A DNA stretch of 64,000 nt from Verrucomicrobiota bacterium. Lineage in GTDB: Bacteria > Verrucomicrobiota > Verrucomicrobiia > Limisphaerales > UBA8199. Below, one piece after another: positions 2,035 through 17,756 of the stretch (the first letter of the stretch is position 1; every line of letters starts with the position of its first letter). The notes below the pieces were generated by a model. The model saw nothing but the letters and a program-made list of their open reading frames with translations, made no database searches and had not been told where the DNA came from. The stretch covers positions 33,872 through 97,871 of the forward strand of contig JBDHQH010000002.1 of the NCBI GenBank assembly GCA_039806935.1. Reading direction: 5' to 3'. Position numbers and translations under genes: made by a program.

Positions 2035-2076
2035 CTTGACGCAAGTCAAGGATTCTGGCGCGGCGACCTCTACAGT
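2035..2076 (+). promoter_or_regulatory. FNR/CRP-family-type palindrome CTTGAC-N4-GTCAAG plus -10-like TACAGT upstream of the molybdoenzyme operon
   Basis: Perfect 6-bp inverted arms at 2035-2040 and 2045-2050, resembling the TTGAT-N4-ATCAA / TTGAC-N4-GTCAA class. TACAGT lies at 2071-2076. The palindrome centre is 41.5 bp upstream of the A of ATG 2084. Confidence 0.4.
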
Positions 2077-2083
2077 GGCGGGC

Positions 2084-3631
2084 ATGCGAACTCCGCGCCG
2101 ACTCATGGACTGGCTGAGCTTGACGGTGGTATGCGCCTCCGCGCCTGGTTTGATGGCGACGAGTGTGACGGCTGCGTCGCTCGAGGCTGGCAAAACGATT
2201 TATCTCCAGCACTGCGCCGCCTGTCACGGTGATGGCGGCGACGGCAACGGGCCGGCCTCGGTCTGGCTTTTTCCCCGGCCGCGCAACTTCAGCGCCGGCC
2301 TGTTCAAAATCAAATCAACACCCGGAATGGAGTTGCCGTCCGACCAGGACCTCCTGGATACGGTCACGCGCGGCATGCCGGGCAGTTCCATGCCGAGCTT
2401 CACCTATCTGGCCGAGCGCGAACGCCGGGATGCCGTGGAATACGTCAAATTTCTCACCGCTTACACCAATGACGCAGGCAACCGGGTGAATCGGTTCGAA
2501 CAGGCCCAGGCCGGCGGCGTCAGTTCGCAAGCGATCCAGATCCCGCCGGAACCGCCGGTAACGGTGCAATCGCTGGCCGACGGAGCCCACCTTTTTACCA
2601 AGCTGAATTGCGTGATGTGCCACGGCGAGACCGGCGCCGGCGATGGGCCCAATGCTTCGACCTTAAAAGACACTCAGGGCCTCTATTTGCCGCCGCGGGA
2701 CTTTAGCACCGGAGCGTTTCGTGGCGGCCATACCGGCCGGGATTTGTTCACGCGGATCGCGGTGGGTCTGCCGGGAACTCCGATGGTGGCTTTTGACAAT
2801 CAGGTCATGACAGATCGGGAGCGCTGGTCGCTGGTGCATTACATTCAATCCCTCCGGCGGAAGGACGTGGAAATCAACGACCTTTTGGCGCCCGTGGACG
2901 ACCGCATACGCGCCCCGCGAGTTCGGGGCAAGTTGCCGGTCGAGTTGACTGATCCGGCCTGGGAGCGGATGGATCCCGTTCGCGTGGCTCTGAATCCACT
3001 GTGGCCGGAAAAAGATACGATTTACGCGGTGGCGGTGCGCGCGGCGCATGACGGCAAGCGCCTGGCGGTGCTTTGCACGTGGAAAGATCCGATTCCCGAC
3101 GGGGCGCCGGTGCGAGTGCAGGATTTTCAGGATGCCATGGCATTGCAATTCGCGATGGATGGGAGCCCCTCGTTCCTGGGCATGGGGGACGCGACTCACC
3201 TGGTCAATATCTGGCAATGGAAAGCCGGATGGCAGCAGGAGGCGGACGGGAGGCGCGCGGACATGGCCGAGTTGTACCCCGCGATGCACACGGACACCTA
3301 TTTCGCCACCAGCTACCGGACGGCGCGTGACGCGGGAAACGCGGTTTCCCGCCCGCATCTCTCGCCGGTCGAGGATGCCAATGCGCGCGGCTTCGGCACC
3401 TTCAAATCCCAATCGCCCGCCGGGCAGAACGTCAGCGGGCGGGGTGTTTGGCGGGACGGCTCCTGGAGCGTGGTGTTTGTGCGGACGTTGAAGTCCCGGG
3501 AGGCGGAGGACGTGAAGCTCGCCATCGGCAAGCCGGTCCCCGTCGCTTTCGCCGTATGGGATGGACAAAACCGCGACCGTAATGGGCGCAAAGTCGTCAG
3601 CAACTGGCATCAACTTATTCTGGAACCCTGA
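2084..3631 (+). CDS. Gamma-type electron-transfer subunit: N-terminal dihaem cytochrome c fused to an EB_dh/DOMON-like haem-b domain
   Basis: Sec-type signal MRTPRRLMDWLSLTVVCASAPGLMATSVTAAS. Two CxxCH motifs: CAACH at 2213-2227 and CVMCH at 2609-2623. The C-terminal half (DFQDAMALQFAMDG...IWQWKAGW...VAFAVWDGQNRDRNGRKVVSNWHQL) looks like ethylbenzene-dehydrogenase gamma/NxrC-type domains. The ORF opens at GTG 2027, but ATG 2084 gives the better signal peptide. Confidence 0.8.
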   Translation: MRTPRRLMDWLSLTVVCASAPGLMATSVTAASLEAGKTIYLQHCAACHGDGGDGNGPASVWLFPRPRNFSAGLFKIKSTPGMELPSDQDLLDTVTRGMPGSSMPSFTYLAERERRDAVEYVKFLTAYTNDAGNRVNRFEQAQAGGVSSQAIQIPPEPPVTVQSLADGAHLFTKLNCVMCHGETGAGDGPNASTLKDTQGLYLPPRDFSTGAFRGGHTGRDLFTRIAVGLPGTPMVAFDNQVMTDRERWSLVHYIQSLRRKDVEINDLLAPVDDRIRAPRVRGKLPVELTDPAWERMDPVRVALNPLWPEKDTIYAVAVRAAHDGKRLAVLCTWKDPIPDGAPVRVQDFQDAMALQFAMDGSPSFLGMGDATHLVNIWQWKAGWQQEADGRRADMAELYPAMHTDTYFATSYRTARDAGNAVSRPHLSPVEDANARGFGTFKSQSPAGQNVSGRGVWRDGSWSVVFVRTLKSREAEDVKLAIGKPVPVAFAVWDGQNRDRNGRKVVSNWHQLILEP

Positions 3632-3647
3632 GAACTCCCCCCAAACC

Positions 3648-6600
3648 ATGAACCATAATCTTTCCCGCCGTGACTTCATCCAGCGCAGCGGCCTCGCGGG
3701 CGCCGGCATCGCCGCCGCGCAAATGCTGCCCCTTCGTTTTTTGCAGGCCCAGACGGCCGAAGAACTGGCGAACCCGCTGGCGCATTACCCCAGCCGGGAT
3801 TGGGAGAAGCTTTACCGGAACCAATACGCCTACGACCACACCTTCTCCTGGGTGTGCGCCCCCAACGACACGCATAATTGCCGCATCACGGCGCAGGTGC
3901 GGAACGGCGTCATCGTCCGGCTGGGCGAGGAGTACGACGTCGATACCTACTCGGACATTTATGGCAATCACGCCACAGCCAACTGGGGCAACCGGCATTG
4001 CGCCAAAGGCTATACTTTCCATCGCATTCTTTACGGTCCTTACCGGCTCAAGCACCCCATCGTGCGCCGGGGATGGAAGCGCTGGGCCGACGCGGGTTTT
4101 CCGGAACTGACCCCCGAGGTCAAGGCCAAGTACCTTTTTGATTCGCGGGGGACGGACAAATTTGAGCGGATTTCCTGGGACGACGCCCTCTCCTATATCG
4201 CCCGGGCCATGAAGGCCATCGCCGTGAGATACAGTGGCGAGGCGGGCGCCCAACGGCTTGAGGCGCAAGGCTACCCCAAGGAGATGATCGAAGACATGGG
4301 CGGGGCCGGCACCCGCACCATTAAAATGCGCGGCGGGATGGGATTGCTCGGCGTGCTGGGCAAATACGGCATGTACCGGCTCTGCAACTCGCTGGCGTTG
4401 CTGGACGTCCACGTCCGCGGGGTGAAACCGGAGGAGGCCAGGGCGGGCCGCATCTGGTCCAATTACACCTGGCATGGCGATCAGGCGCCCGGCCATCCCT
4501 GGGTGCATGGGCTGCAGAATAGCGAATGTGATTTCAATGATCTGCGCAACGCCAAGCTGATCATCATGAACGGCAAGAACCTGGTGGAGAACAAAATGGC
4601 GGATGCCCACTGGTTCATCGAGTGCATGGAGCGCGGGGCTAAAATTGTCGTGATCGCGCCTGAATATGGCGCCCCCTCCACCAAGGCCGATTACTGGATC
4701 CCGGTGCGGCCGTCCACCGATGCCGCGCTGTGGCTTGGAGTGACGCGTTTGATGATCGACAAGGGCTGGTATGACGCGGTGTTCGTGAAACAATTCACCG
4801 ATTTTCCGCTCCTGATCCGCACCGACAATCTTCAGCGGCTGCGCGCCGCCGAGGTGTTCCCGAACTACACCAGCCGACTGCCGGAGGACAGTCCCAGCAA
4901 GAAAGTCCAGGGATTGACGGATGAGCAGCATCAGAAGCTGGGAGATTTCGTGGTCTGGGATGCCGCCGAGGACGCGCCGAAGGCGTTGACTCGGGACATG
5001 GTCGGCAAGACCCTCGCGCAATCCGGCATTGATCCGAGGTTGGACTTCCGCGGCCGGGTGAAGCTGGCGGACGGCAGCGAGGTTGAGGCGGCCACAGCCT
5101 GGAGCTTGTATCAGGTGCATCTCAAAGATTACGATCTGGACACGGTTGCCGAGATCACCTCCGCGCCCAAAGAGTTGGTGGAACAACTGGCCCGGGATCT
5201 CGCCACCATCAAGCCGGCGGCGATTCACCAGGGGGAAGGCATTAATCACTGGTTCCATGCGACCGAGGCCAATCGTGCGGCTTATCTGCCGCTGATGCTG
5301 ACGGGGAACATCGGCAAACCCGGGACCGGCTGCCACGGGTGGGCAGGCAATTATAAGGCGGCGCTGTTCCAAGGCAGCAAACTGACCGGTTGGGGCTTCA
5401 AAGGCTGGGTGGCGGAGGATCCCTTCGAGCAAAATCTGGATCCGCGGGCGCATGGACGCGAGGTGAAAGCGCACGCTTACACGAAGGACGAGGAACCGGC
5501 CTACTGGAACCATGGCGACCGTCCGTTGATTGTGGATACGCCCAAGGAGGGACGGAAGTGTTTCACGGGCAAATCCCACATGCCCACGCCCACCAAGGCG
5601 ATTTTCACCACCAACGTGAATCTGATCAACAACGCCAAATGGGCGTATGGGATGATCAAAAACGTCAACCCCAACGTGGAACTGATTGTCACGATGGATA
5701 CTCAGATGACCGCGTCGGTGGAGTATTCCGATTTTGGTTTGCCGGCCAATTCCTGGGTGGAATTTCAGGACCTCGAGGTGACGGCGAGCTGCTCGAATCC
5801 GTTTCTGCAAATCTGGAAGGGCGGCATCAAGCCGCTTTACGATTCGCGGGATGACCTGTCGATTCTCGCGGGAATCGCGGCGGCTCTGGGCAAGCTGACC
5901 GGCGACAAGCGGTTCCACTCGCACTTCAAGTTCGAGCACGAAGGCAAGCGCGGGATATATATCCAGCGGCTGCTGGATACCTCGACGACGACCGCCGGCT
6001 ACCAGCTTGATGACATCATGGCAGGGAAGTATGGGCCGCCCGGCGGCGCCCTGATGCTTTTCCGCTCCTATCCGCGGATTCCCTTCTACGAGCAGGTCCA
6101 GGATGCGTATCCTTTCTATACCGACACCGGCCGGCTGCATTCGTACAGCGATGATCCAACGGCGCTTGCCTGCGGGGAAAACTTCATCGTTCATCGCGAA
6201 GGACCCGAGGCGACCCCGTATTTGCCAAATGTCATTATCAGCTCGAACCCGCTGGTGCGGCCCAATGATTACGGAATTCCTCTCGATGCCGAGCATTGGG
6301 ACGAGCGAACGGTGCGCAATGTGAAGCTGCCCTGGGCGGAGGCCAGGAAGACCACCAACTTCCTTTGGAAGGACGGCTATCAGTTCTATTGCCTGACCCC
6401 CAAATCACGCCATAGTGTTCACTCTTCCTGGGCGAATGTGGACTGGCATCTGATCTGGAACTCCAATTTCGGCGATCCGTATCGGTTGGACAAGCGCCTG
6501 CCGAATGTCGGCGAGCACCAGATCCATATGAACCCGCAGGCGGCTCGCGACCTGGGCATCAAAGATGGAGATTACGTATATGTGGACGCCAATCCGGCGG

Positions 6601-7121
6601 ATCGTCCCTACCTCGGCGCGACCCCTTCCGATCCGTTTTACAAGGTCAGCCGGCTGATGCTGCGCTGCACCTATAACTCGGCTTATCCGTATAACGTCGT
6701 GATGATGAAGCACGGTTCGTTCATCGCCACGGAGAAGACGGTGAAGGCGCAGCAGACGCGGCCGGACGGACTCTCCCTGACCGAAGAGGGCTACATCTCG
6801 AATTTTCGCTTCGGCTCCCAGCAGTCGGTTACCCGCAACTGGCACATGCCCATGCACCAAACCGATACCTTGTTTCACAAAACCAAGGCCATGATGGGCT
6901 TTATTTTCGGCGGGGAAGCCGATAACCACGCGGTAAACACAGTGCCCAAGGAATGTTTGATCAGCGTCACCAAGGCGGAGGATGGCGGCCTGGGCGGCAA
7001 AGGCCCCTGGAAACCCGGCCTGAACGGCATGGCTCCCGACGCCGAGAATGAAACCATGAAAAAGTACCTCGCGGGCGACTTCACCGGAACCGGCGGTCCC
7101 GCGGCGCAAGGTTTCGAGTAG
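3648..7121 (+). CDS. Molybdopterin (bis-MGD) oxidoreductase alpha subunit, type II DMSO reductase family, NarG/NxrA-like, Tat-exported
   Basis: Twin-arginine signal MNHNLSRRDFIQRSGLAGAGIAAA. The N-terminus aligns by eye with E. coli NarG (RDWE...; FS0 region; YTWHGDQAP matches WYCDLPPASP, with a conserved Asp at 4479-4481). Length is 1157 aa. The antisense 3615..6296 ORF is a shadow. Confidence 0.9.
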   Translation: MNHNLSRRDFIQRSGLAGAGIAAAQMLPLRFLQAQTAEELANPLAHYPSRDWEKLYRNQYAYDHTFSWVCAPNDTHNCRITAQVRNGVIVRLGEEYDVDTYSDIYGNHATANWGNRHCAKGYTFHRILYGPYRLKHPIVRRGWKRWADAGFPELTPEVKAKYLFDSRGTDKFERISWDDALSYIARAMKAIAVRYSGEAGAQRLEAQGYPKEMIEDMGGAGTRTIKMRGGMGLLGVLGKYGMYRLCNSLALLDVHVRGVKPEEARAGRIWSNYTWHGDQAPGHPWVHGLQNSECDFNDLRNAKLIIMNGKNLVENKMADAHWFIECMERGAKIVVIAPEYGAPSTKADYWIPVRPSTDAALWLGVTRLMIDKGWYDAVFVKQFTDFPLLIRTDNLQRLRAAEVFPNYTSRLPEDSPSKKVQGLTDEQHQKLGDFVVWDAAEDAPKALTRDMVGKTLAQSGIDPRLDFRGRVKLADGSEVEAATAWSLYQVHLKDYDLDTVAEITSAPKELVEQLARDLATIKPAAIHQGEGINHWFHATEANRAAYLPLMLTGNIGKPGTGCHGWAGNYKAALFQGSKLTGWGFKGWVAEDPFEQNLDPRAHGREVKAHAYTKDEEPAYWNHGDRPLIVDTPKEGRKCFTGKSHMPTPTKAIFTTNVNLINNAKWAYGMIKNVNPNVELIVTMDTQMTASVEYSDFGLPANSWVEFQDLEVTASCSNPFLQIWKGGIKPLYDSRDDLSILAGIAAALGKLTGDKRFHSHFKFEHEGKRGIYIQRLLDTSTTTAGYQLDDIMAGKYGPPGGALMLFRSYPRIPFYEQVQDAYPFYTDTGRLHSYSDDPTALACGENFIVHREGPEATPYLPNVIISSNPLVRPNDYGIPLDAEHWDERTVRNVKLPWAEARKTTNFLWKDGYQFYCLTPKSRHSVHSSWANVDWHLIWNSNFGDPYRLDKRLPNVGEHQIHMNPQAARDLGIKDGDYVYVDANPADRPYLGATPSDPFYKVSRLMLRCTYNSAYPYNVVMMKHGSFIATEKTVKAQQTRPDGLSLTEEGYISNFRFGSQQSVTRNWHMPMHQTDTLFHKTKAMMGFIFGGEADNHAVNTVPKECLISVTKAEDGGLGGKGPWKPGLNGMAPDAENETMKKYLAGDFTGTGGPAAQGFE

Positions 7122-7137: not shown

Positions 7138-7431
7138 ATGCTTATGCCCAAAGACGAATTTGATTTCGAGGATCCGCTGGAATTGAACGGCGTGGCGTTC
7201 CTGACCGGCGAGGATACCACGGATGCCATGTGCGAATGTTTCATCGAGGAATTCATGCGCCTGGGGCACAGTCCGGAGCAACTTCTGGCGCTCTTTCGCA
7301 ATCCATACTACCTCGGCCTGCACATGGTGCTGGAGCAGCGCGGCGAAGCGTTTGTCCGTGAGCGCATCACGGAAGTCTTCGCGCGATGGGGCAGGGCGCA
7401 CAGCAATCAGCAATCACAAAACAAAGCATGA
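7138..7431 (+). CDS. Small acidic hypothetical protein (97 aa) between the alpha and beta subunits
   Basis: ATG lies 16 nt after the alpha stop. Its stop overlaps the beta ATG as ATGA (7428-7431), implying translational coupling. Composition is unbiased and protein-like (MLMPKDEFDFEDPLELNGVAFLTGEDTTDAMCECFIEEF...). Confidence 0.6.
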   Translation: MLMPKDEFDFEDPLELNGVAFLTGEDTTDAMCECFIEEFMRLGHSPEQLLALFRNPYYLGLHMVLEQRGEAFVRERITEVFARWGRAHSNQQSQNKA

Positions 7432-8699
7432 GCAACGTACTCAACTGGCAACTGGGCCGCGACATGGACTATCCCTATGAGGCGGCCTACCCGGATCAGC
7501 AGTTTGCCTTTGTGTTCAACCTGAACCGCTGCATCGGTTGCCAGAGTTGCACAATGGCCTGCAAATCGACGTGGACCTTCTCCCGCGGGCAGGAGAACAT
7601 GTGGTGGAACAACGTCGAGACCAAACCCTACGGCGGCTATCCGCATCATTGGGATGTGAAGATCCTGGATCTTCTCGAACGGGCCAACCCGGGCGGCCAA
7701 ACCTGGGATCCGGACGCCAAAGACGCGAAAGGGCCTTACGGCAAATTCAACGGCAAGACGATTTTTGAAGCCGCCCGGATGAATGTCAGCCCCGAAGGCG
7801 CGCAGCGGGCGCTGGGGTACCTGCCCGCGGATGAAGAGTGGTCCGCACCGAATCGGTATGAGGATCATCCGGTCGGAGCGGAGAAGGGTGTGAAGGGGCA
7901 GGGCTTTAAAGGCGGCGAGGCGCTGCCGCAGCACAAGACCTGGTTTTTCTATCTGGCGCGCATTTGCAACCACTGCTCCTACCCCGCCTGCCTGGCGGCG
8001 TGTCCGCGGAACGCGATCTACAAGCGGCCCGAGGACGGCATTGTCTTGATCGATCAGGAGCGCTGTCGCGGCTATCGCAAGTGCATGGAGGCCTGCCCTT
8101 ATAAGAAAAGTCTTTACCGAGGCACCACTCGAACCAGCGAAAAGTGCATTGGTTGCTTCCCGCGGGTCGAGGGCCGGGATCAGCAGGGCGGCGGTTTGCC
8201 CATGCAGACCCGCTGCATGGCAGCTTGCATCGGCCACATCCGGCTCCAGGGGCTGGTGGAAATGAACCGGGATGGCACTTGGAAAGAGAATCGCCAAAGC
8301 CCGCTCTACTATCTGGTGCATGTGGCCAAGGTGGCCTTGCCCATCTATCCGCAGTTCGGCACCGAACCCAACGGTTATTACATTCCCCCGCGGTGGGTGC
8401 CGCGCGGGTATCTCCGGCAGATGTTCGGCCCGGGGGTGGATGCGGCCGTGGAGAAATACAGTGCGCCCGACCGCGAACTACTTGCGGTTTTGCAGCTTTT
8501 TGGCAAAGATCATCGCATCTGCCACCACTACGAAATCAAGGAGGGGCCGAAGGTGTTTGAAACCGAGATTCGCGGAAAGAAGTTCGAGATGTACAACGAC
8601 ACCATCATCGGCTACGCGAAAGATGGAACGAAAATCATTGAAACCACCGTGGAAGAACCCATCCACATTCGGCCGGATAAGCATGCGAACTCCATCTGA
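7428..8699 (+). CDS. Iron-sulfur beta subunit, NarH/NxrB-like (four Fe-S cluster motifs)
   Basis: CIGCQSCTMACK, CNHCSYPACLAACP, CRGYRKCMEACPY and CIGCFPR, plus a WWNNVETKP motif as in NarH. At about 423 aa it is shorter than the cytoplasmic 512-aa NarH. Confidence 0.9.
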   Translation: MSNVLNWQLGRDMDYPYEAAYPDQQFAFVFNLNRCIGCQSCTMACKSTWTFSRGQENMWWNNVETKPYGGYPHHWDVKILDLLERANPGGQTWDPDAKDAKGPYGKFNGKTIFEAARMNVSPEGAQRALGYLPADEEWSAPNRYEDHPVGAEKGVKGQGFKGGEALPQHKTWFFYLARICNHCSYPACLAACPRNAIYKRPEDGIVLIDQERCRGYRKCMEACPYKKSLYRGTTRTSEKCIGCFPRVEGRDQQGGGLPMQTRCMAACIGHIRLQGLVEMNRDGTWKENRQSPLYYLVHVAKVALPIYPQFGTEPNGYYIPPRWVPRGYLRQMFGPGVDAAVEKYSAPDRELLAVLQLFGKDHRICHHYEIKEGPKVFETEIRGKKFEMYNDTIIGYAKDGTKIIETTVEEPIHIRPDKHANSI

Positions 8700-8880: not shown

Positions 8881-9624
8881 ATGGCTCGGGCGTTTATCTA
8901 TCGTTTTCTCGCCCAGGCCTTCGCCGACCCCACAGAGGGAAATTGGGCGTGGCTGAGTGCGACGGAGAACCGCCGCTCGCTCCAGAGCGCCGTTCGAGTT
9001 CTGGCCGGGGGCGCCCCAGCGCTGGCTGAGGCTGCGGACGCGTGGTTGGCCCGGCTGGAGCCGAAGGAGTTCGAGACGTTCCTGGAGTCCTACCTCGCGG
9101 CGTTCGGCCATGCGGCTCGGGGCCGCTGCCCGTTGAACGAAATCGAATACGGAGATATCAAGGCGGATCCGCTGTTTCAACCGCATCGGCTGGCGGATTT
9201 GGCCGCATTTTATCGGGCCTTTGGTCTCGAGGTGGCGGACGGGGCGGACGAACGCCAGGATCATCTCTGTCTCGAATTGGAGTTCATGTGCGTCCTGGCG
9301 GCCAAGGAGGCCTACGCGCTCGAGCATCAGCTCGAACCCGGCGAGTTGGCCACTTGCCACGATGCCCAAAGGAGATTCTTGCGGGAACATCTCGGCCGTT
9401 GGACGCCGGCGTTTTCGCGGCGCCTGGCGCGACTGGCCGGCGATAGCGCGCTGGGCAGCCTCGCGAATTTGCTGCAAGCGCTGATCGAGGCGGAATGCGA
9501 GCGTCAGGGAATTCCACCCGGCAGCGAGGATCTGCTGCTGCGACCGGTCGATGAGGCGGCCGAGAGCCTCTGCCAATCTTGCGGACTGGCCAACCTGCCG
9601 CCGGGAGCGGCGCCGACGGCCTAG
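8881..9624 (+). CDS. NarJ/TorD-family redox-enzyme maturation chaperone
   Basis: MARAFIYRFLAQAFADPTEGNWAWL...YLAAFGH...CPLNEIEYG...DHLCLELEFMCVLA is typical of the TorD/NarJ/DdhD-like delta subunit. An alternative ATG at 8683 overlaps the beta stop and would add a 66-aa low-complexity N-terminus. Confidence 0.75.
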   Translation: MARAFIYRFLAQAFADPTEGNWAWLSATENRRSLQSAVRVLAGGAPALAEAADAWLARLEPKEFETFLESYLAAFGHAARGRCPLNEIEYGDIKADPLFQPHRLADLAAFYRAFGLEVADGADERQDHLCLELEFMCVLAAKEAYALEHQLEPGELATCHDAQRRFLREHLGRWTPAFSRRLARLAGDSALGSLANLLQALIEAECERQGIPPGSEDLLLRPVDEAAESLCQSCGLANLPPGAAPTA

Positions 9625-9628
9625 CTAT

Positions 9629-10585
9629 ATGCGCCTGCGCTACGACGAAGATTTTGTGGAAGCGGTCGTTCTCGGCGCGGCGGGTGCCGGGCAGAGGAAC
9701 ATTCCGGCGCTCCAGATCAGCCGGTTCCACCGGCACCGGGAGCGGCTCTACACCATACTCGATCCAGACGAGCGCAACGCCGCTTTTTTCAAACTCCATC
9801 TGGAGTGGTTTCGCGAATGGGGATTGGAGCAGCGTTTGATTGGGCCTTTGCGGCATTTTCCTTTACTCGCCACCGGGCTGGCGGCGTTGGCGGTGCGTCA
9901 GGCGCGCGGTCGGGATGACGAGGGATCCGAACTCTACGTCAATGAGCAGGGCGTCCGGACCGGCGTTCTGGCCATGCGCCCGGAACGATTGATCCGCGAT
10001 CTGGAGCTGCCGACATTTTTGCGCCATGAGCTCACTCATCTGAACGATATGCTTGCCCCGGCCTTTGGTTATCGTCCTGAGCTGGCGGGAGCAGGCGAAT
10101 TTCTGGGATCCCAACGACTGGCGCGCGAGCGGTATCGCCTGCTGTGGGATGTGACCATCGACGGGCGCGCGGCGCGCGACGGCCATCCAACCCTCGCCAC
10201 CCGGGAGCAGCGCTGGGTGGCTTTCATCCGGGGTTTTCCTTTTTGGGACGATACTCAACAACGGGAAATTTTTGACTCGCTTTGGAGTGATCCCCGCCCC
10301 ACTCACGCGCGATTGGAGGAACTCGTTCGCGATCCGCGCCAATTGCTGCGCGCCGGACCCGGCCCGGGGTCGCCATGTCCTTTGTGCGGCTTCCCCAGTT
10401 TTGCCTGGGCGGAAGCGGCGAGTCTTGCGGACGAAACCCTGAAAGCCATCCAAGCCGAATTTCCGGCGTGGTCTCCGAGGCGGGGTGTTTGCCGCAGGTG
10501 CGCCGAGATCTATCGGCGCGGATCACCGGCCGTGGCCGGCGAATCGGTTCGCCGCCACAACGAGGTTCAGCCTTCGCTCCCATGA
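9629..10585 (+). CDS. Hypothetical protein with an HExxH motif and a C-terminal CxxC...CxxC pair
   Basis: ATG lies 4 nt after the chaperone stop, and its stop overlaps the next ATG (ATGA). HELTH is at 10025-10039. CPLC...CRRC sits near the C-terminus. No family recognised. Confidence 0.65.
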   Translation: MRLRYDEDFVEAVVLGAAGAGQRNIPALQISRFHRHRERLYTILDPDERNAAFFKLHLEWFREWGLEQRLIGPLRHFPLLATGLAALAVRQARGRDDEGSELYVNEQGVRTGVLAMRPERLIRDLELPTFLRHELTHLNDMLAPAFGYRPELAGAGEFLGSQRLARERYRLLWDVTIDGRAARDGHPTLATREQRWVAFIRGFPFWDDTQQREIFDSLWSDPRPTHARLEELVRDPRQLLRAGPGPGSPCPLCGFPSFAWAEAASLADETLKAIQAEFPAWSPRRGVCRRCAEIYRRGSPAVAGESVRRHNEVQPSLP

Positions 10586-11043
10586 TTGCGATCCGCCAGC
10601 TTTTTCTTTCTCCCGGCCACAATTTTTTCGGGCATCACGGCCAACCCGCAGGACAACATCCGGCCTTGGAAGTGGATGAACTGGACTGCCGCGCCAACCG
10701 CGGCATCCGTGGCGACCGCTTTTTCGATTACCAGCCGGATTATAAGGGGCAGATCACGTTTTTTTCCGAGGAGATCTTCGACGCCATGCGGCGTGAGCTT
10801 GGCCTGGCGGACGCGCAACCGGTCGCGGCCCGGCGCAATGTGCTGGTTCGGGGGGTGGACCTGGACACCCTGATCGGAAAGGAATTTGAGATTCAAGGGG
10901 TGCGGTTCGCCGGGGTGGAGCAGTGCAAGCCTTGTTACTGGATGAACTCCGCCCTGGGCCCCGGAGCGGAGGATTGGATGCAAGGGCGGGGCGGCTTGCG
11001 GGCGCGGATTCTGACCGATGGGATTTTAAGGCGCACGGCATGA
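10582..11043 (+). CDS. MOSC domain-containing protein (YiiM-like)
   Basis: MIAIRQLFLSPGHNFFGHHG...RGDRFFD...RRNVLVRGVDL...FEIQGVRFAGVEQCKPCYWM...GGLRARILTDG matches the MOSC beta-barrel pattern with its conserved Cys. ATGA overlaps at both ends. Confidence 0.8.
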   Translation: MIAIRQLFLSPGHNFFGHHGQPAGQHPALEVDELDCRANRGIRGDRFFDYQPDYKGQITFFSEEIFDAMRRELGLADAQPVAARRNVLVRGVDLDTLIGKEFEIQGVRFAGVEQCKPCYWMNSALGPGAEDWMQGRGGLRARILTDGILRRTA

Positions 11044-11639
11044 ACCTGGGCGCAGTCATCCTGGCGGGCGGTGAATCAAGCCGGATGGGGCGAGATAAGG
11101 CTTGGGTGACGGTGGCGGGCCAGCCGTTGATGGTCCGGGCCAACCGGGCCATTCGCGAGGCGGGTGTCTGTGAAGTCTATATCTCCGGCCATGGCGGACG
11201 GGACTATTCGTCGCTGGGCTGCCCGGTGTTGGTGGATCGGGAACCCGGTTTCGGTCCGCTGGCCGGAATGGATCGCGCGCTGGAAGAGGTGCGGGCGCCG
11301 TTGTTATTGGTGCTGGCGGTGGATTTGCCGCGTCTGGATGCCGAATTCATCCGCCTGCTGGCCGCGCAGTGCGATCCGCTCACGGGCGCCATTCCCAGAG
11401 TGCGCGGCCAATTAGAGCCATTGGCGGCGATTTACCCCAAACGTTGCCGGTATTTGGCCCGGGATTGCCTGTTGCGACGCCAGTTGGCGGCGCGCGAATT
11501 TGCCAATGCCTGCCTGCGCGAGCGCGCCGTCAAGGCCTTTCCGGTGGGGCGTCGGCATGTCCGCTGCTTTGACAATTGCAACACGCCTGCCGATCTCGCC
11601 GCTGTCGGAATTGGAGCCGGAGCCGGCGAGTACCCTTAA
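11040..11639 (+). CDS. mobA: Molybdenum cofactor guanylyltransferase
   Basis: MNLGAVILAGGESSRMGRDKAWV...GPLAGM...LVLAVDLP matches the MobA signature. This fits a bis-MGD enzyme encoded upstream. Confidence 0.85.
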   Translation: MNLGAVILAGGESSRMGRDKAWVTVAGQPLMVRANRAIREAGVCEVYISGHGGRDYSSLGCPVLVDREPGFGPLAGMDRALEEVRAPLLLVLAVDLPRLDAEFIRLLAAQCDPLTGAIPRVRGQLEPLAAIYPKRCRYLARDCLLRRQLAAREFANACLRERAVKAFPVGRRHVRCFDNCNTPADLAAVGIGAGAGEYP

Positions 11640-12554: not shown

Positions 12555-13133
12555 CTATTTTGCGATGGGTTCGATGACGCCGCAGGCCACGCGCGCGCCC
12601 GCGTTGCCGGTGGGCTGCGTCGCCAGATCGTCCGGTTGCGCGTGAACGATGACCGATCTCCCGAGAATCGAGTTTGGCCCCTGGAAAGCCATGCGGGTAT
12701 CGACAAAGTCCAGCCGGGCATGGCCAGATTTGTCGGCCACCAGATTCCCCATGTCGCCCACGTGCGATTGCGGAGAGTTCGGCGCGCCATGCGGCATGCC
12801 GGTGGGATTAAAATGTCCACCCGCTGAACTGGCATCCGGGGCGGAGCAATCACCATGCTCGTGAATATGGAATCCGTGCTGGCCGGGAGTGAGATCCCTG
12901 ACGTCAGCGACGATTCGGAGCCCGCCGGCCACGCGCGTGAATTTCACCGTGCCATTGGCCTGGTTGCCTTGAGTTGGTTTGAGCACCGCGATGGCACGCT
13001 TAGGCGCGGTCTCTGGCGAGCCCGACCGCTCATGAGTCGCGCAACCCGACATCCCCATGATCAACGCCGCCAGTGGCAGCACCGTGCCGCCGTTCCATCC
13101 TTTCGCCTCGTTCCGAACCTTTTGCTCCCGCAT
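12555..13133 (-). CDS. sodC: Cu/Zn superoxide dismutase, lipoprotein-type signal
   Basis: GFHIHEHGDCS, GGHFNP, HVGDMGN and GARVACGVI motifs. N-terminal lipobox-like MSGC. Confidence 0.9.
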   Translation of the reverse strand: MREQKVRNEAKGWNGGTVLPLAALIMGMSGCATHERSGSPETAPKRAIAVLKPTQGNQANGTVKFTRVAGGLRIVADVRDLTPGQHGFHIHEHGDCSAPDASSAGGHFNPTGMPHGAPNSPQSHVGDMGNLVADKSGHARLDFVDTRMAFQGPNSILGRSVIVHAQPDDLATQPTGNAGARVACGVIEPIAK

Positions 13134-14415: not shown

Positions 14416-14760
<345 letters not shown>

Positions 14761-14793
14761 GGCCGAGCGCGTTTGGCTGCCAGGAATTCTCGT

Positions 14794-16248
14794 ATGCGAA
14801 CCGTCGTTTTATGGGTCGCGCTGCTGATGGCGACAGGACTGAGTCAGCCGGTGGTGGCGGCGGAAGCCACGCTGGTTCCGGAGCGCACCGTTGAGGAACG
14901 GCTGGATGATCTGGAGGCCTACTTTCACAACGCTCCCCGTCATGCCGACCCGAGCGCGACCAGCCGGATTTTCGTCGCCGGCCCCGGGCATAACAGTTGG
15001 ATGATGACTGCGTCCGGCCTGGTGCTTTTCATGACCCTGCCCGGACTCGCGCTGTTTTATGGCGGTCTGGTGCGGCGGAAAAATGTTTTGTCCGTTCTGG
15101 CCCAATGTTTGGGCATTGCCGGGCTGGTCACCATCCTTTGGTGGGCGGTGGGCTATAGCATCGCTTTTCATCCGGGCCGTCCCGCCTGGGGATCACTGGC
15201 GTGGGCATTTCTCGGGCATGTGGGCGGCGCGCCGAACCCTGATTACGGAGCGTGGGTTTCGCAGAGCGTGTTTGCCATGTACCAGCTTATGTTCGCGATC
15301 ATTACCCCGGCCTTGATCGTCGGGTCGGTCGCTGAACGGATGAAGTTTTCGGCCCTGCTGTTATTCATCACTCTCTGGATGTTTGTGGTGTATTTTCCAC
15401 TGGCGCACATGGTGTGGGGGGTGGATGGGCTGATGAACGGCGCGGGCAACGCCCACGCGAGGATCAAGGCAATTGATTTCGCGGGGGGCACGGTGGTTCA
15501 CATGTCCTCGGGGTGGTCGGCGTTGATTCTCTGCCTGCTGCTGGGCAAGCGCCTCGGCTTTGGGCGGGAGCCGATGCGCCCGCACAACATGGTGCTCTGC
15601 ATGGTGGGCACGGGCATGCTTTGGGTGGGTTGGTATGGTTTCAACGCCGGCAGCGCCATGGCGGCTGATGGGATTGCCGCCAACGCGTTCATGACCACCA
15701 CGCTGGCCGCCGCCACGGGCTCGATTGTTTGGGCGCTGGCGGAATACGCTTTCCGTGGCAAGCCCAGCACGCTGGGATTTTGCTCGGGGGCGGTGGCAGG
15801 TCTGGTAACCATTACGCCGGCCTGCGGGTTTGTCACTGCCAATGGCGCCATGGCAATTGGTGTCGCGGCGGGCCTGGTGCCCTTTTTTGCCTGCTGGAAG
15901 CTCAAGAACTGGATTGGTTATGATGACGCTCTGGATACGTTCGGGATTCATGCAATTGGCGGGACTCTGGGCGCGCTCCTGACGGGATGCCTGGCGCGGA
16001 CGACGGCAAACCCAAATCTCGAGTTGAACCTCAGGGCTTATGTCACCAATTCCTTTTTCCAACCGCTGGTGCTGGAGCAGCTCAAGGCGATTGCGCTCAC
16101 CTTGCTGCTGGCGACCCTTTCCACGGCTATCCTGGCGATGCTCGTCCGCGCCTTCGTTGGCTTGCGGGTTTCGGCGGAGGTGGAGACTTCGGGCCTGGAT
16201 CTGGCTGAGCACGGAGAAGAAGGCTATCATGCGCAAGCGCATTTATGA
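14794..16248 (+). CDS. amtB: Ammonium transporter (Amt family)
   Basis: Signal peptide followed by a multi-TM Amt pattern (FAGGTVVHMSSGWSAL, WVGWYGFNAGSA, DDALDTFGIHAIGG). The track ORF opens at TTG 14773; the first ATG is 14794. Confidence 0.92.
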   Translation: MRTVVLWVALLMATGLSQPVVAAEATLVPERTVEERLDDLEAYFHNAPRHADPSATSRIFVAGPGHNSWMMTASGLVLFMTLPGLALFYGGLVRRKNVLSVLAQCLGIAGLVTILWWAVGYSIAFHPGRPAWGSLAWAFLGHVGGAPNPDYGAWVSQSVFAMYQLMFAIITPALIVGSVAERMKFSALLLFITLWMFVVYFPLAHMVWGVDGLMNGAGNAHARIKAIDFAGGTVVHMSSGWSALILCLLLGKRLGFGREPMRPHNMVLCMVGTGMLWVGWYGFNAGSAMAADGIAANAFMTTTLAAATGSIVWALAEYAFRGKPSTLGFCSGAVAGLVTITPACGFVTANGAMAIGVAAGLVPFFACWKLKNWIGYDDALDTFGIHAIGGTLGALLTGCLARTTANPNLELNLRAYVTNSFFQPLVLEQLKAIALTLLLATLSTAILAMLVRAFVGLRVSAEVETSGLDLAEHGEEGYHAQAHL

Positions 16249-16259
16249 TTTCGATCGCC

Positions 16260-16275
16260 GGGCACGTTGTTGGCA
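16260..16275 (+). promoter_or_regulatory. Sigma54 (-24/-12) promoter upstream of glnA
   Basis: GGGCACGTTGTTGGCA. GGCACG is at 16261-66 and the -12 GC at 16273-74, 12 nt from the -24 GG. It lies about 70 nt upstream of ATG 16344. Confidence 0.55.
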
Positions 16276-16324
16276 AGGGGCCGAGAACAGGCCAGGCTGG
16301 ACATTGCTAAAACAAAACATCTGA

Positions 16325-16344
16325 TAGACCCAAATAGACCCAAA
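16325..16344 (+). repeat. Perfect 10-bp tandem duplication TAGACCCAAA x2 abutting the glnA start codon
   Basis: Read directly: ...ctgaTAGACCCAAATAGACCCAAAtg... Confidence 0.9.
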
Positions 16345-17756
16345 TGAACACACCCAAGAGCGTAATCGATCTGGCCAAAAAAACCGGGGCCCGCATGGTC
16401 GATCTCAAATTTGTGGATACCTTCGGCGCCTGGCAGCATTTCAGTTGCCCCATTCGAGAGTTGACGGAGGAGGTTTTTGAAGAGGGCTTCGGCTTTGATG
16501 GCTCGAGCATTCGCGGCTGGAAGAGCGTGGAAGCTTCGGACATGCTGGCGATTCCTGATCCGACGACCGCCTTTCTGGATCCGTTCTGCGCCGAGCCCAC
16601 GCTGTCCCTGACCTGTGCGATCGCGGAAACCGGCGCGAAAGTGGCCTATATCCGGGATCCCCGCGGAATCGCGCAGAAGGCGGAGAGATATCTGGCCGGC
16701 ACCGGCCAGGCGGACACGGCTTATTTCGGCCCGGAAGCCGAATTCTTCGTGTTCGACAATGTCCAGTACGACAACAAGAGCAACGGCGCGTTTTACAGTG
16801 TCGAATCCGAGGAGGGAATCTGGAACAGCGGACGCGAGGAAATGCCAAATCTTGGCTACAAGATTCGGCACAAGGAGGGCTACTTTCCCGTCGCTCCGAC
16901 GGATCAGCAACAGGATCTGCGCACCGAGATGAGCCTGGTGATGGAGCGCCTCGGTCTGGTCATCGAGCGCCAACACCACGAGGTGGCGACGGCCGGGCAG
17001 GCGGAAATTGATTATCGCTATGACACGCTCGTCAGGGCGGCGGATGCCATGATGGTGTTCAAATATGTGGTCAAGAACGTCGCTCGCCGCCACGGCAAAA
17101 CGGCCTGTTTCATGCCCAAGCCGCTTTTCGGCGACAATGGCTCCGGCATGCACACGCACATCAGCTTGTGGAAAAAGGGCAAGCCGCTATTCGCGGGAAA
17201 CGAGTACGCCGGCCTTTCCCGGATGGCGTTGTATTTTATCGGCGGGCTGCTGAAACATGCCCGGGCGCTGTGCGCAATCTGCAATCCCACAACGAACAGC
17301 TACAAGCGGCTTGTGCCGGGCTACGAAGCGCCGGTGAACCTCGCGTATTCCGGGCGGAATCGCTCGGCGGCGGTGCGCATTCCGATGTACAGCGAGAATC
17401 CGAAATCCAAGCGTATCGAGTACCGCCCGCCCGATCCGGCCGCGAATCCGTACTTGGCGTTCGCCGCGCTTTTGATGGCGGGCCTGGACGGAGTGCTGAA
17501 CAAAATCGATCCCGGCGAGCCGCTGGACAAAAACATCTACGAATTGCCGCCCGAAGAGCTGAAGAAAGTGCCGAGTGCCGCCGGCAGCCTGGCCGAGGCG
17601 CTCGATGCGCTCGAAAAGGACCATGAGTTTCTGCTCAAGGGCGACGTCTTCACCATGGACTTTCTCGACATGTGGATGGCGAGCAAGCGCAAAGAGCAGG
17701 ACGCCCTGCGGTTGCGGCCGCATCCCTACGAGTTCTTCCTCTACTATGATGTTTGA
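16344..17756 (+). CDS. glnA: Glutamine synthetase type I
   Basis: 470 aa. The N-terminal beta-grasp ([23 protein letters not shown]) and the catalytic region ([35 protein letters not shown]) are classic GSI motifs. Confidence 0.95.

Follow-up and report, generated by a model that had tools for sequence, protein, structure and literature searches.

The alpha subunit encoded in the window, i.e., the whole 64,000-nucleotide stretch of verrucomicrobial DNA that was analysed, carries a C-x3-D-x3-C...C motif in which Cys70, Asp74, Cys78 and Cys118 are very probably the four ligands of the FS0 cluster of a nitrite oxidoreductase (NXR) of the periplasmic Kuenenia/Nitrospira type. This 3Cys/1Asp arrangement is a published family trait and not a new one, because the same ligands have been described in a crystal structure and the Asp was noted in 2010. 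The motif itself therefore adds no novelty, and its value is small and lies in annotation and ecology. An alpha subunit that has it can be reliably placed in the periplasmic NXR clade, but not labelled a "nitrite oxidiser": what the motif shows is membership of an enzyme clade that is full of non-nitrifiers, not nitrite oxidation.

The alpha gene (3648..7121, on the + strand like all features described below) encodes 1157 aa, with residue 1 at the ATG at 3648. Its product was recognized as the catalytic Mo-bisMGD subunit of an NXR-type member of the type II DMSO-reductase family by its match to 7B04_B, the Kuenenia NXR-A chain, by the Pfam Molybdopterin domain PF00384 and by TIGR01409. The match to 7B04_B amounts to 1715 bits (60.7% identity over 956 aa), is gap-free around the motif and places C70/D74/C78/C118 on C67/D71/C75/C115 and Asp278 on D275. 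In the crystal structure of the Kuenenia enzyme, FS0 is held by three Cys and Asp71 (C67/D71/C75/C115), and D275 is the molybdenum ligand (Chicano et al., 2021, PMC8387239). The FS0 ligation proposed for the window's protein is thus carried over from the structure, at 3.0 Å resolution, of a protein with 61% identity. An earlier note on this DNA had mentioned a Cys-to-Asp replacement in periplasmic NxrA, and this is borne out by the same paper, which names Asp71 as a ligand and credits the earlier remark on the Asp to the Nitrospira metagenome paper of Lücker et al. (2010).

The codons of the four FS0 ligands and of the molybdenum ligand could be located exactly, the residues being assigned from the alignments and the published ligands. 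Cys70 (TGC, 3855..3857), the first ligand, corresponds to NarG His49 and Kuenenia Cys67; Asp74 (GAC, 3867..3869), the carboxylate ligand, to NarG Cys53 and Kuenenia Asp71; Cys78 (TGC, 3879..3881), the third, to NarG Cys57 and Kuenenia Cys75; and Cys118 (TGC, 3999..4001), the fourth, to NarG Cys92 and Kuenenia Cys115, which gives a full spacing of C-x3-D-x3-C-x39-C. Asn73 (AAC, 3864..3866), beside the FS0 Asp, is the substrate-coordinating Asn by alignment and the published site, equivalent to Kuenenia Asn70 and NarG Asn52, and Asp278 (GAT, 4479..4481) is the equivalent of Kuenenia Asp275. The earlier note had put the four motif residues within 3855-4001, where their codons indeed lie, and Cys118, which it had offered as a candidate fourth ligand, falls on a ligand in both reference enzymes. 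The alpha subunit also has N315, E530 and K919, second-shell residues of the NXR type drawn from a review, and its close homologues keep them without exception. An AlphaFold2 model of the subunit, built on a 24-sequence alignment, had a mean pLDDT of 46.7, with values below 50 for residues 11-133, which span the whole FS0 region, and was too poor to inform on the cluster.

The register, which had been set by eye in the earlier note (Cys70 on His49, Asp74 on Cys53, Cys78 on Cys57), was reproduced by three independent alignments, with Cys118 on Cys92. With phmmer, Cys70 falls on the His of PcrA (4YDD), and Asp74 and Cys78 fall on its first and second Cys; a second phmmer alignment, restricted to the N-terminal domain and comprising E. 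coli NarG plus 55 further sequences, yields the identical register; and so does a global alignment by MAFFT of 41 alpha subunits, covering NarG and the Kuenenia NxrA. No canonical H/C-x3-C-x3-C register emerged, and the Asp is kept in the closest homologues. The motif C-x3-D-x3-C is found in 120 of 120 close homologues, and the full C-x3-D-x3-C...C in all 78 loci with an N-terminus among the best 80 genomic loci, all of which have at least 70% identity to the alpha subunit. Moreover, C70, N73, D74, C78, C118 and D278 form invariant columns in a 24-sequence alignment (72-90% identity), in agreement with the conservation that had been claimed for the molybdenum-ligand Asp. Judged by these alignments, the conservation of the motif is not due to chance.

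How far the Asp can serve as a lineage signature was addressed with a quick maximum-likelihood tree of 41 alpha subunits, in which Kuenenia NxrA was represented by its PDB sequence (957 residues) and from which named Nitrospira and Nitrospina sequences are absent. In this tree the Cys-Asp-Cys-Cys state marks a clade of 29 sequences (SH-aLRT 100) with the window's alpha subunit and Kuenenia NxrA; outside it, the NarG-type proteins have His-Cys-Cys-Cys and intermediate clades have Cys-Cys-Cys-Cys. Three members of the 29-sequence clade deviate at the Asp position, two having Cys and one Glu. As the state marks a supported clade and the other states lie outside, the Asp is a usable, though not an absolute, sequence signature of the enzyme clade. 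The suggestion that it is a lineage signature supporting NXR affiliation consequently holds for phylogeny; it does not hold as evidence of nitrite oxidation, given the non-nitrifiers in the clade and a genomic context that leans to nitrate reduction.

The surrounding operon resembles that of Kuenenia stuttgartiensis NXR-ABC (NxrA Kustd1700; PDB 7B04) in several respects. Both alpha subunits, that of Kuenenia being about 1150 aa long as well, share the C/D/C/C ligands, the substrate Asn, the Mo-ligand Asp and N315/E530/K919, and both carry Tat signals. The window's subunit has a twin-arginine signal (SRRDF, residues 6-10) that aligns with the Kuenenia signal peptide, and with 19.7 bits it exceeds the cut-off (16.7) of the Tat signal model TIGR01409; from its sequence, the subunit is predicted to be Tat-exported and periplasmically oriented. 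The beta subunit with four Fe-S clusters (7428..8699) matches 7B04_A, NXR-B, with 598 bits, its best NCBIfam model being TIGR03478, below cut-off. A 97-aa ORF without family match (7138..7431) lies between alpha and beta, as a small ORF does in Kuenenia, and its position is conserved in orthologous operons of many phyla. The gamma gene (2084..3631) combines a dihaem cytochrome c domain with an EB_dh/NxrC-type haem b domain (Pfam EB_dh and two cytochrome c domains). Its haem b part matches 7B04_C with 92 bits and keeps the Met/Lys ligand positions, Met155 and Lys305, while its cytochrome c part matches 6H5L_B with 154 bits. The N-terminal dihaem fusion distinguishes this gamma subunit from that of Kuenenia, as do, at the level of the operon, an FNR/Dnr-type box, MOSC and MobA genes of its own and a direction of catalysis that is likely nitrate reduction.

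On this basis, a path for the electrons can be proposed. By homology to the solved structure, FS0 would be a [4Fe-4S] cluster of the alpha subunit that adjoins the proximal pterin, and one iron of this cluster would be bound by the Asp74 carboxylate in place of a thiolate. Asn73, just before it, is expected to point at the molybdenum site, so that the Asn-Asp dipeptide would form a direct link between the active site and the first electron relay. The path would then connect Mo-bisMGD (Asp278), FS0, the four beta clusters, the Met/Lys haem b and the two gamma c haems, in that order.

As to direction, the enzyme of the window is probably for the most part a respiratory nitrate reductase under FNR/Dnr control that feeds NirK, rather than a nitrite oxidase. 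This reading is favoured because RuBisCO was not found, NirK is present, the alpha gene is the sole NarG-family gene, the FNR/Dnr box is conserved and a Limisphaera orthologue points the same way. The host is described as a heterotrophic Limisphaerales-like verrucomicrobium, an anammox planctomycete being the host of the Kuenenia enzyme, and RuBisCO, the sole carbon-fixation marker searched, was not found in its 95%-complete genome. A second, canonical nitrate reductase in this genome was considered and rejected, as no other NarG-family match was found. A search of the genome for NirS gave weak matches only.

Regulatory evidence comes from a palindrome of the FNR/Dnr type, TTGACGCAAGTCAA (2036..2049), whose first base lies 48 bp before the start codon of gamma. 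Genes under the control of FNR/Dnr-type boxes are typically those of anaerobic respiration. The window has no other box of this type, and the 3.88-Mb genome, which also encodes a Crp/Fnr-family regulator, has 23 in all. Of 31 verrucomicrobial orthologous loci, 24 have a perfect TTGA-N6-TCAA at 14-74 bp before gamma, vs none of 33 from other phyla. Elsewhere in the genome, an FNR-type box at C133:8440 was considered as an element in front of norCB and rejected, since what follows it is a DUF2249 protein and a divergent COX1-like protein.

The second line of evidence is provided by Limisphaera. Limisphaera sp. VF-2 grows by nitrate respiration, and a 'distant NarGHI homolog' was reported only in two nitrate-respiring Limisphaera strains and same-species MAGs (PMC13608581). 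The homolog of L. sibirica VF2 and L. vallis 4302-co has the same motif and the same gene order (gamma, alpha, orf97, beta, chaperone, HExxH, MOSC, MobA); in VF-2 the alpha orthologue is 84% identical, an identical TTGACGCAAGTCAA box lies 46 bp upstream, and no other NarG-family gene is present. The window comes from an uncultured relative in a different genus, with the phylum and probably the order in common. The link to nitrate respiration in Limisphaera is a correlation across strains. The downstream pathway differs between the two: VF-2 has NrfA, which would provide a DNRA route, whereas the window's genome has NirK and only weak multihaem matches in place of a clear NrfA, and an NrfA-based DNRA as in Limisphaera was therefore rejected for it. 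More broadly, but somewhat more tentatively, a Kuenenia-type NXR with an Asp-ligated FS0 may well be the only dissimilatory nitrate reductase of the Limisphaerales, induced through FNR/Dnr and feeding NirK, or NrfA in Limisphaera. In that case, the oxidative direction of NXR would not be set by the 3Cys/1Asp FS0, and nxrA-based surveys would count such nitrate reducers among nitrite oxidisers. The verrucomicrobial subgroup offers a tractable test of the direction of NXR-like enzymes in non-nitrifiers and of the tuning of that direction by the Asp, because a nitrate-respiring Limisphaera, VF2, can be cultured and the FNR-type box is conserved.

It is possible, but rather unlikely, that the enzyme works as a physiological nitrite oxidoreductase, which would oxidize nitrite aerobically for supplementary energy or detoxification without autotrophy and pass electrons from the gamma c haems to a haem-copper oxidase. 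The alpha subunit does sit in the clade of the anammox NXR and, according to the literature, of the Nitrospira and Nitrospina NXRs, with all NXR-type active-site residues present, and the dihaem c extension of gamma would be well suited to passing electrons to cytochromes that are soluble or bound to an oxidase. The genome contains at least three genes of the haem-copper oxidase family, and its several oxidases of this kind would be possible electron acceptors for nitrite oxidation. In vitro, the Kuenenia enzyme works in both directions, and the direction of NXR-like genes in non-nitrifiers has been left open (PMC9306079). However, the lack of a detectable RuBisCO, the box in 24 of the 31 verrucomicrobial operons and the nitrate respiration of the cultured carrier of the 84% orthologue, which has no other candidate nitrate reductase, all speak against nitrite oxidation, as does the genome's NirK, which requires a source of nitrite.

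A different substrate, such as chlorate/perchlorate, selenate or, as in ethylbenzene dehydrogenase (EBDH), a hydrocarbon, is very improbable. Members of the type II DMSO-reductase family with a like subunit plan do use such substrates; PcrAB (4YDD) and EbdABC (2IVF) are likewise periplasmic, EBDH shares an EB_dh-type gamma with Met/Lys haem b, and among the PDB matches to alpha, PcrA (191 bits) and EbdA (149 bits) come next after the Kuenenia chain. Yet the match to the nitrite/nitrate enzyme is far stronger (1715 bits vs at most 191), and both of these proteins differ at the cluster as well as in substrate, PcrA having His-x3-Cys-x3-Cys and EBDH an FS0 held by 3Cys/1His (PMC8387239). The window's alpha keeps the NXR-type residues and the substrate Asn, a position that is Ile in EBDH (PMC8387239), and VF-2 respires nitrate but not selenate or arsenate (PMC13608581). 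A wrong register, or an Asp74 that is a mere neighbour of an FS0 held by canonical ligands (all Cys, or His and Cys) at another place in the N-terminal domain, is scarcely credible: nothing in the analyses favours it, except that a structure at 3.0 Å of a protein with 61% identity is, in principle, no proof here, and against it stand the single register of the three alignments, the invariance of Asp74 in close homologues, the explicit naming of the Asp as ligand (PMC8387239) and the composition of residues 45-175, which hold only three Cys (C70, C78 and C118) and thus offer no further thiolate to a cluster that needs four ligands.

The remaining genes of the operon concern, in part, assembly and cofactor maturation. 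A NarJ/TorD-type assembly chaperone (8881..9624; PF02613, TIGR03482) is followed by a 318-aa HExxH protein whose family was not recognised (9629..10585) and which is co-conserved 3' of the chaperone in most orthologous operons. Domain matches identify a MOSC-domain protein (10582-11043) and a MobA guanylyltransferase (11040-11639) for cofactor maturation, together covering 10582..11639. A scan of operon proteins turned up no NarI-like ORF, the operon having the soluble-type cytochrome c/EB_dh gamma instead.

E. coli NarGHI (1Q16) is a more distant relative, with a Mo-bisMGD alpha containing FS0, a four-cluster beta, a haem subunit and the Mo-ligand Asp in common, although it faces the cytoplasm and is anchored in the membrane by the dihaem b protein NarI. 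The window's alpha matches E. coli NarG with about 96 bits only, and the narG equivalog TIGR01580 scores 133.7 bits on it vs a cut-off of 1084; a search of the genome with this model gave no match above cut-off. The NarG-type His-x3-Cys-x3-Cys...Cys is absent from the subunit, which has Cys for the His and Asp for the first Cys. For His49 variants of NarG, a role of this residue in maturation has been reported. In both enzymes an Asn precedes the second FS0 ligand, but in NarG (His49/Cys53/Cys57/Cys92) the non-thiolate ligand occupies position 1, whereas in the window's alpha it would occupy position 2.

The 3Cys/1Asp motif at FS0, the [4Fe-4S] cluster of the alpha subunit, is an already published and structurally confirmed feature. 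By far the best PDB match of the window's alpha subunit is 7B04 chain B, the "Nitrite oxidoreductase subunit A" of Kuenenia stuttgartiensis (1715 bits, residues 5-1145), with 60.7% identity across the 956 aligned residues shown and an alignment that is gap-free around the motif. With a three-residue offset, C70, D74, C78 and C118 correspond to C67, D71, C75 and C115 of Kuenenia, while N73 equals N70 and D278 equals D275. C67, D71, C75 and C115 are the residues marked as FS0 ligands in Extended Data Fig. 1 of the Kuenenia study (Chicano et al., 2021; PMC8387239), so that the Cys-to-Asp replacement that the earlier note attributed to periplasmic NxrA is correct. For an earlier mention of the Asp, that study cites its reference 3, the Nitrospira metagenome paper of Lücker et al. 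(2010), and a 2025 review restates the point on the NXR FS0 Asp (PMC12300631). The same review contrasts the active sites of NXR and NAR at Asn70-Asp71/Asn52-Cys53, Glu527/Ala542, Asn312/Thr259 and Lys917/His1092 (PMC12300631). At all these positions the window's alpha subunit has the NXR residue, i.e., N73-D74, E530, N315 and K919, and these are invariant among relatives in a 24-sequence alignment. An AlphaFold2 model from this alignment reached a mean pLDDT of only 46.7, with values below 50 in the FS0 region; for the ligand question, the alignment to the crystallised homologue and its published ligands suffice.

The alpha gene was read as an ORF of 1157 amino acids on the forward strand, from the ATG at 3648 to the TAG at 7121. 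There is no need to invoke the longer ORF that begins at 3561, since its Met30 precedes the SRRDF twin-arginine motif and the NCBIfam Tat-signal model scores above its cut-off. Numbered from 3648, the forward-strand codons are TGC for Cys70 (3855-3857), AAC for Asn73 (3864-3866), GAC for Asp74 (3867-3869), TGC for Cys78 (3879-3881), TGC for Cys118 (3999-4001) and GAT for Asp278 (4479-4481); the coordinates and residue numbers given for the motif in the earlier note are exact. The motif's register against E. coli NarG, initially drawn by eye, is upheld by three alignments. In a phmmer search of PDB sequences, alpha residues 50-153 aligned to the perchlorate reductase PcrA (4YDD), with Cys70 at a His, Asp74 at the first Cys, Cys78 at the second Cys and NRHC at PRGC. 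A second phmmer comparison, of the N-terminal domain with 150 family representatives and E. coli NarG (K-12 record), gave identical columns, the NarG motif lying under WVCAPNDTHNC and the NarG PRGC under NRHC, and a global MAFFT alignment of 41 alpha subunits did so once more. In the literature numbering of NarG, with the initiator Met removed, the aligned residues are His49, Cys53, Cys57 and Cys92. Cys118, proposed before as the fourth ligand, aligns with the Cys of PRGC and matches the Kuenenia ligand C115.

C-x3-D-x3-C is kept in 120 of 120 close homologues (72-90% identity). The motif including the fourth Cys is found in all 78 genomic loci that cover the N-terminus. Sampling was deepened with representatives of 50%-identity clusters and with a rapid maximum-likelihood phylogeny of 41 alpha subunits; only the well-supported splits of this tree are to be trusted, as the search was short, used no mixture model and included several long branches. 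In this tree, NarG-type sequences have His/Cys/Cys/Cys, and two clades in between, made up of uncharacterised type II enzymes, have Cys/Cys/Cys/Cys, with Asp/Cys/Cys/Cys in one member. In addition to the window's alpha subunit and Kuenenia NxrA, the Cys/Asp/Cys/Cys clade (29 rows, SH-aLRT 100) includes SAR202/Chloroflexota and Gaiellaceae MAG sequences. Within this clade, Cys replaces Asp in P0127 (from a Tectomicrobia MAG) and P0312, giving an all-Cys FS0, and P0137 has Glu at the Asp position and Pro instead of the substrate Asn. The state of the second ligand requires a minimum of four changes on the tree. Judged from these sequences, Asp at the second FS0 position marks the clade well, though with exceptions. 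The earlier suggestion of a lineage signature supporting NXR affiliation therefore stands as far as membership of the clade is concerned, which is what NXR affiliation means here, but nitrite oxidation does not follow from it and the Cys and Glu exceptions weaken the signature. In another member, P0143, the Asp is retained and the Mo ligand is replaced by Ser.

The direction of the reaction is addressed by two more pieces of evidence, an upstream FNR/Dnr-type box and the comparison with Limisphaera sp. VF-2. This organism has an alpha subunit with 84% identity, the same operon and a box identical to that of the window, and the NXR-type gene is the only NarG-family match in its genome. A 2026 paper (PMC13608581) shows that nitrate respiration supports growth of the Limisphaera strains VF2 and 4302-co. 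We consider it moderately likely that the window's enzyme physiologically reduces nitrate. Nitrite oxidation is the less likely physiological direction, and the small remaining probability falls to both directions or neither. The Kuenenia NXR catalyses both reactions in vitro, and the literature leaves the direction of NXR-like genes in non-nitrifiers open (PMC9306079). Electrons would pass along the chain of Mo-bisMGD, FS0, FS1-FS4, haem b and the c haems, in this order or the reverse.

The box, a perfect palindrome (TTGACGCAAGTCAA) at 2036-2049, begins 48 bp 5′ of the gamma start codon. No other TTGA-N6-TCAA occurs within the 64-kb window, and the genome has 23 in all. In 24 of the 31 orthologous loci from Verrucomicrobiota, gamma is preceded by a perfect box at a distance of 14-74 bp; the 33 orthologous loci of other phyla have none, at a background density of 0.05 per kb over all loci; among loci the half-sites are kept and the six central bases vary. 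In the window's own genome (G000), one regulator belongs clearly to the Crp/Fnr family (G000:C122:35895-36110 region; L106:1384-2259, minus strand). This regulator has no N-terminal Cys cluster and ends in a four-Cys tail (HCLPTDC...CKDC), which resembles the Fe-S site at the C-terminus of Bacillus-type Fnr. Another FNR-type box, TTGATCTAAATCAA, is located at G000:C133:8440 (L086:870), 48 bp ahead of a DUF2249 gene, 3′ of which a divergent COX1-like membrane protein of 495 amino acids is encoded. These genes may belong to the same regulon as the operon.

G000 (3.88 Mb, 95% complete) contains a single copy of the NXR-type alpha gene, and neither a second NarG-family gene nor a RuBisCO match was found in it. 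Besides several haem-copper oxidase-family genes, it encodes NirK, with a score at the model's cut-off, and a sulfite/nitrite-reductase domain protein; NrfA and NirS gave no clear match in this genome. The closest alpha subunits are labelled Verrucomicrobiota, and the window's topoisomerase IV subunit A has about 80% identity to proteins labelled Limisphaerales or Verrucomicrobiota. The enzyme is patchy among 40 relatives: within the family, 4 of 24 other genera have it, and within the order, 2 of 16 other families. Verrucomicrobia-type nxrA, 81-92% identical, is also present in MAGs labelled Limnocylindrales, Bifidobacteriaceae, Bifidobacterium, Akkermansia muciniphila and Myxococcales (L001, L005, L016, L026 and L012). 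These cases probably reflect mistakes in binning or labelling, not transfer.

The gene order gamma, alpha, orf97, beta, chaperone, HExxH is shared by about 70 loci from many phyla. The gamma gene (2084-3631) lies upstream of alpha, and the C-terminal half of its product matches NxrC of 7B04, with the haem b ligands Met155 and Lys305 retained. For the N-terminal half, a dihaem cytochrome c domain (2084-2860), PDB 6H5L chain B, a 'conserved hypothetical cytochrome protein', is closest (154 bits), so the fused gamma module has a structural homologue that stands alone. The beta subunit, encoded at 7428-8699, aligns with 7B04 chain A at 598 bits. A 97-amino-acid ORF without family match (7138-7431) separates alpha from beta. 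By tblastn it recurs there in almost every one of the approximately 70 orthologous loci, across many phyla and with 33-80% identity, and is therefore a real, conserved and unnamed part of NXR-type operons. Downstream follow genes for a NarJ/TorD-type chaperone, a 318-amino-acid HExxH protein (9629-10585), a MOSC protein and MobA. The HExxH protein has no Pfam or NCBIfam match; in most of the orthologous operons its gene (27-63% identity at the protein level) is conserved too and follows immediately on that of the chaperone. Close 3′ of the operon, a gene for a periplasmic Cu/Zn superoxide dismutase lies on the opposite strand (12555-13133, minus strand), and is followed by a PII/ammonium transporter/glutamine synthetase cluster (14422-17756, plus strand).
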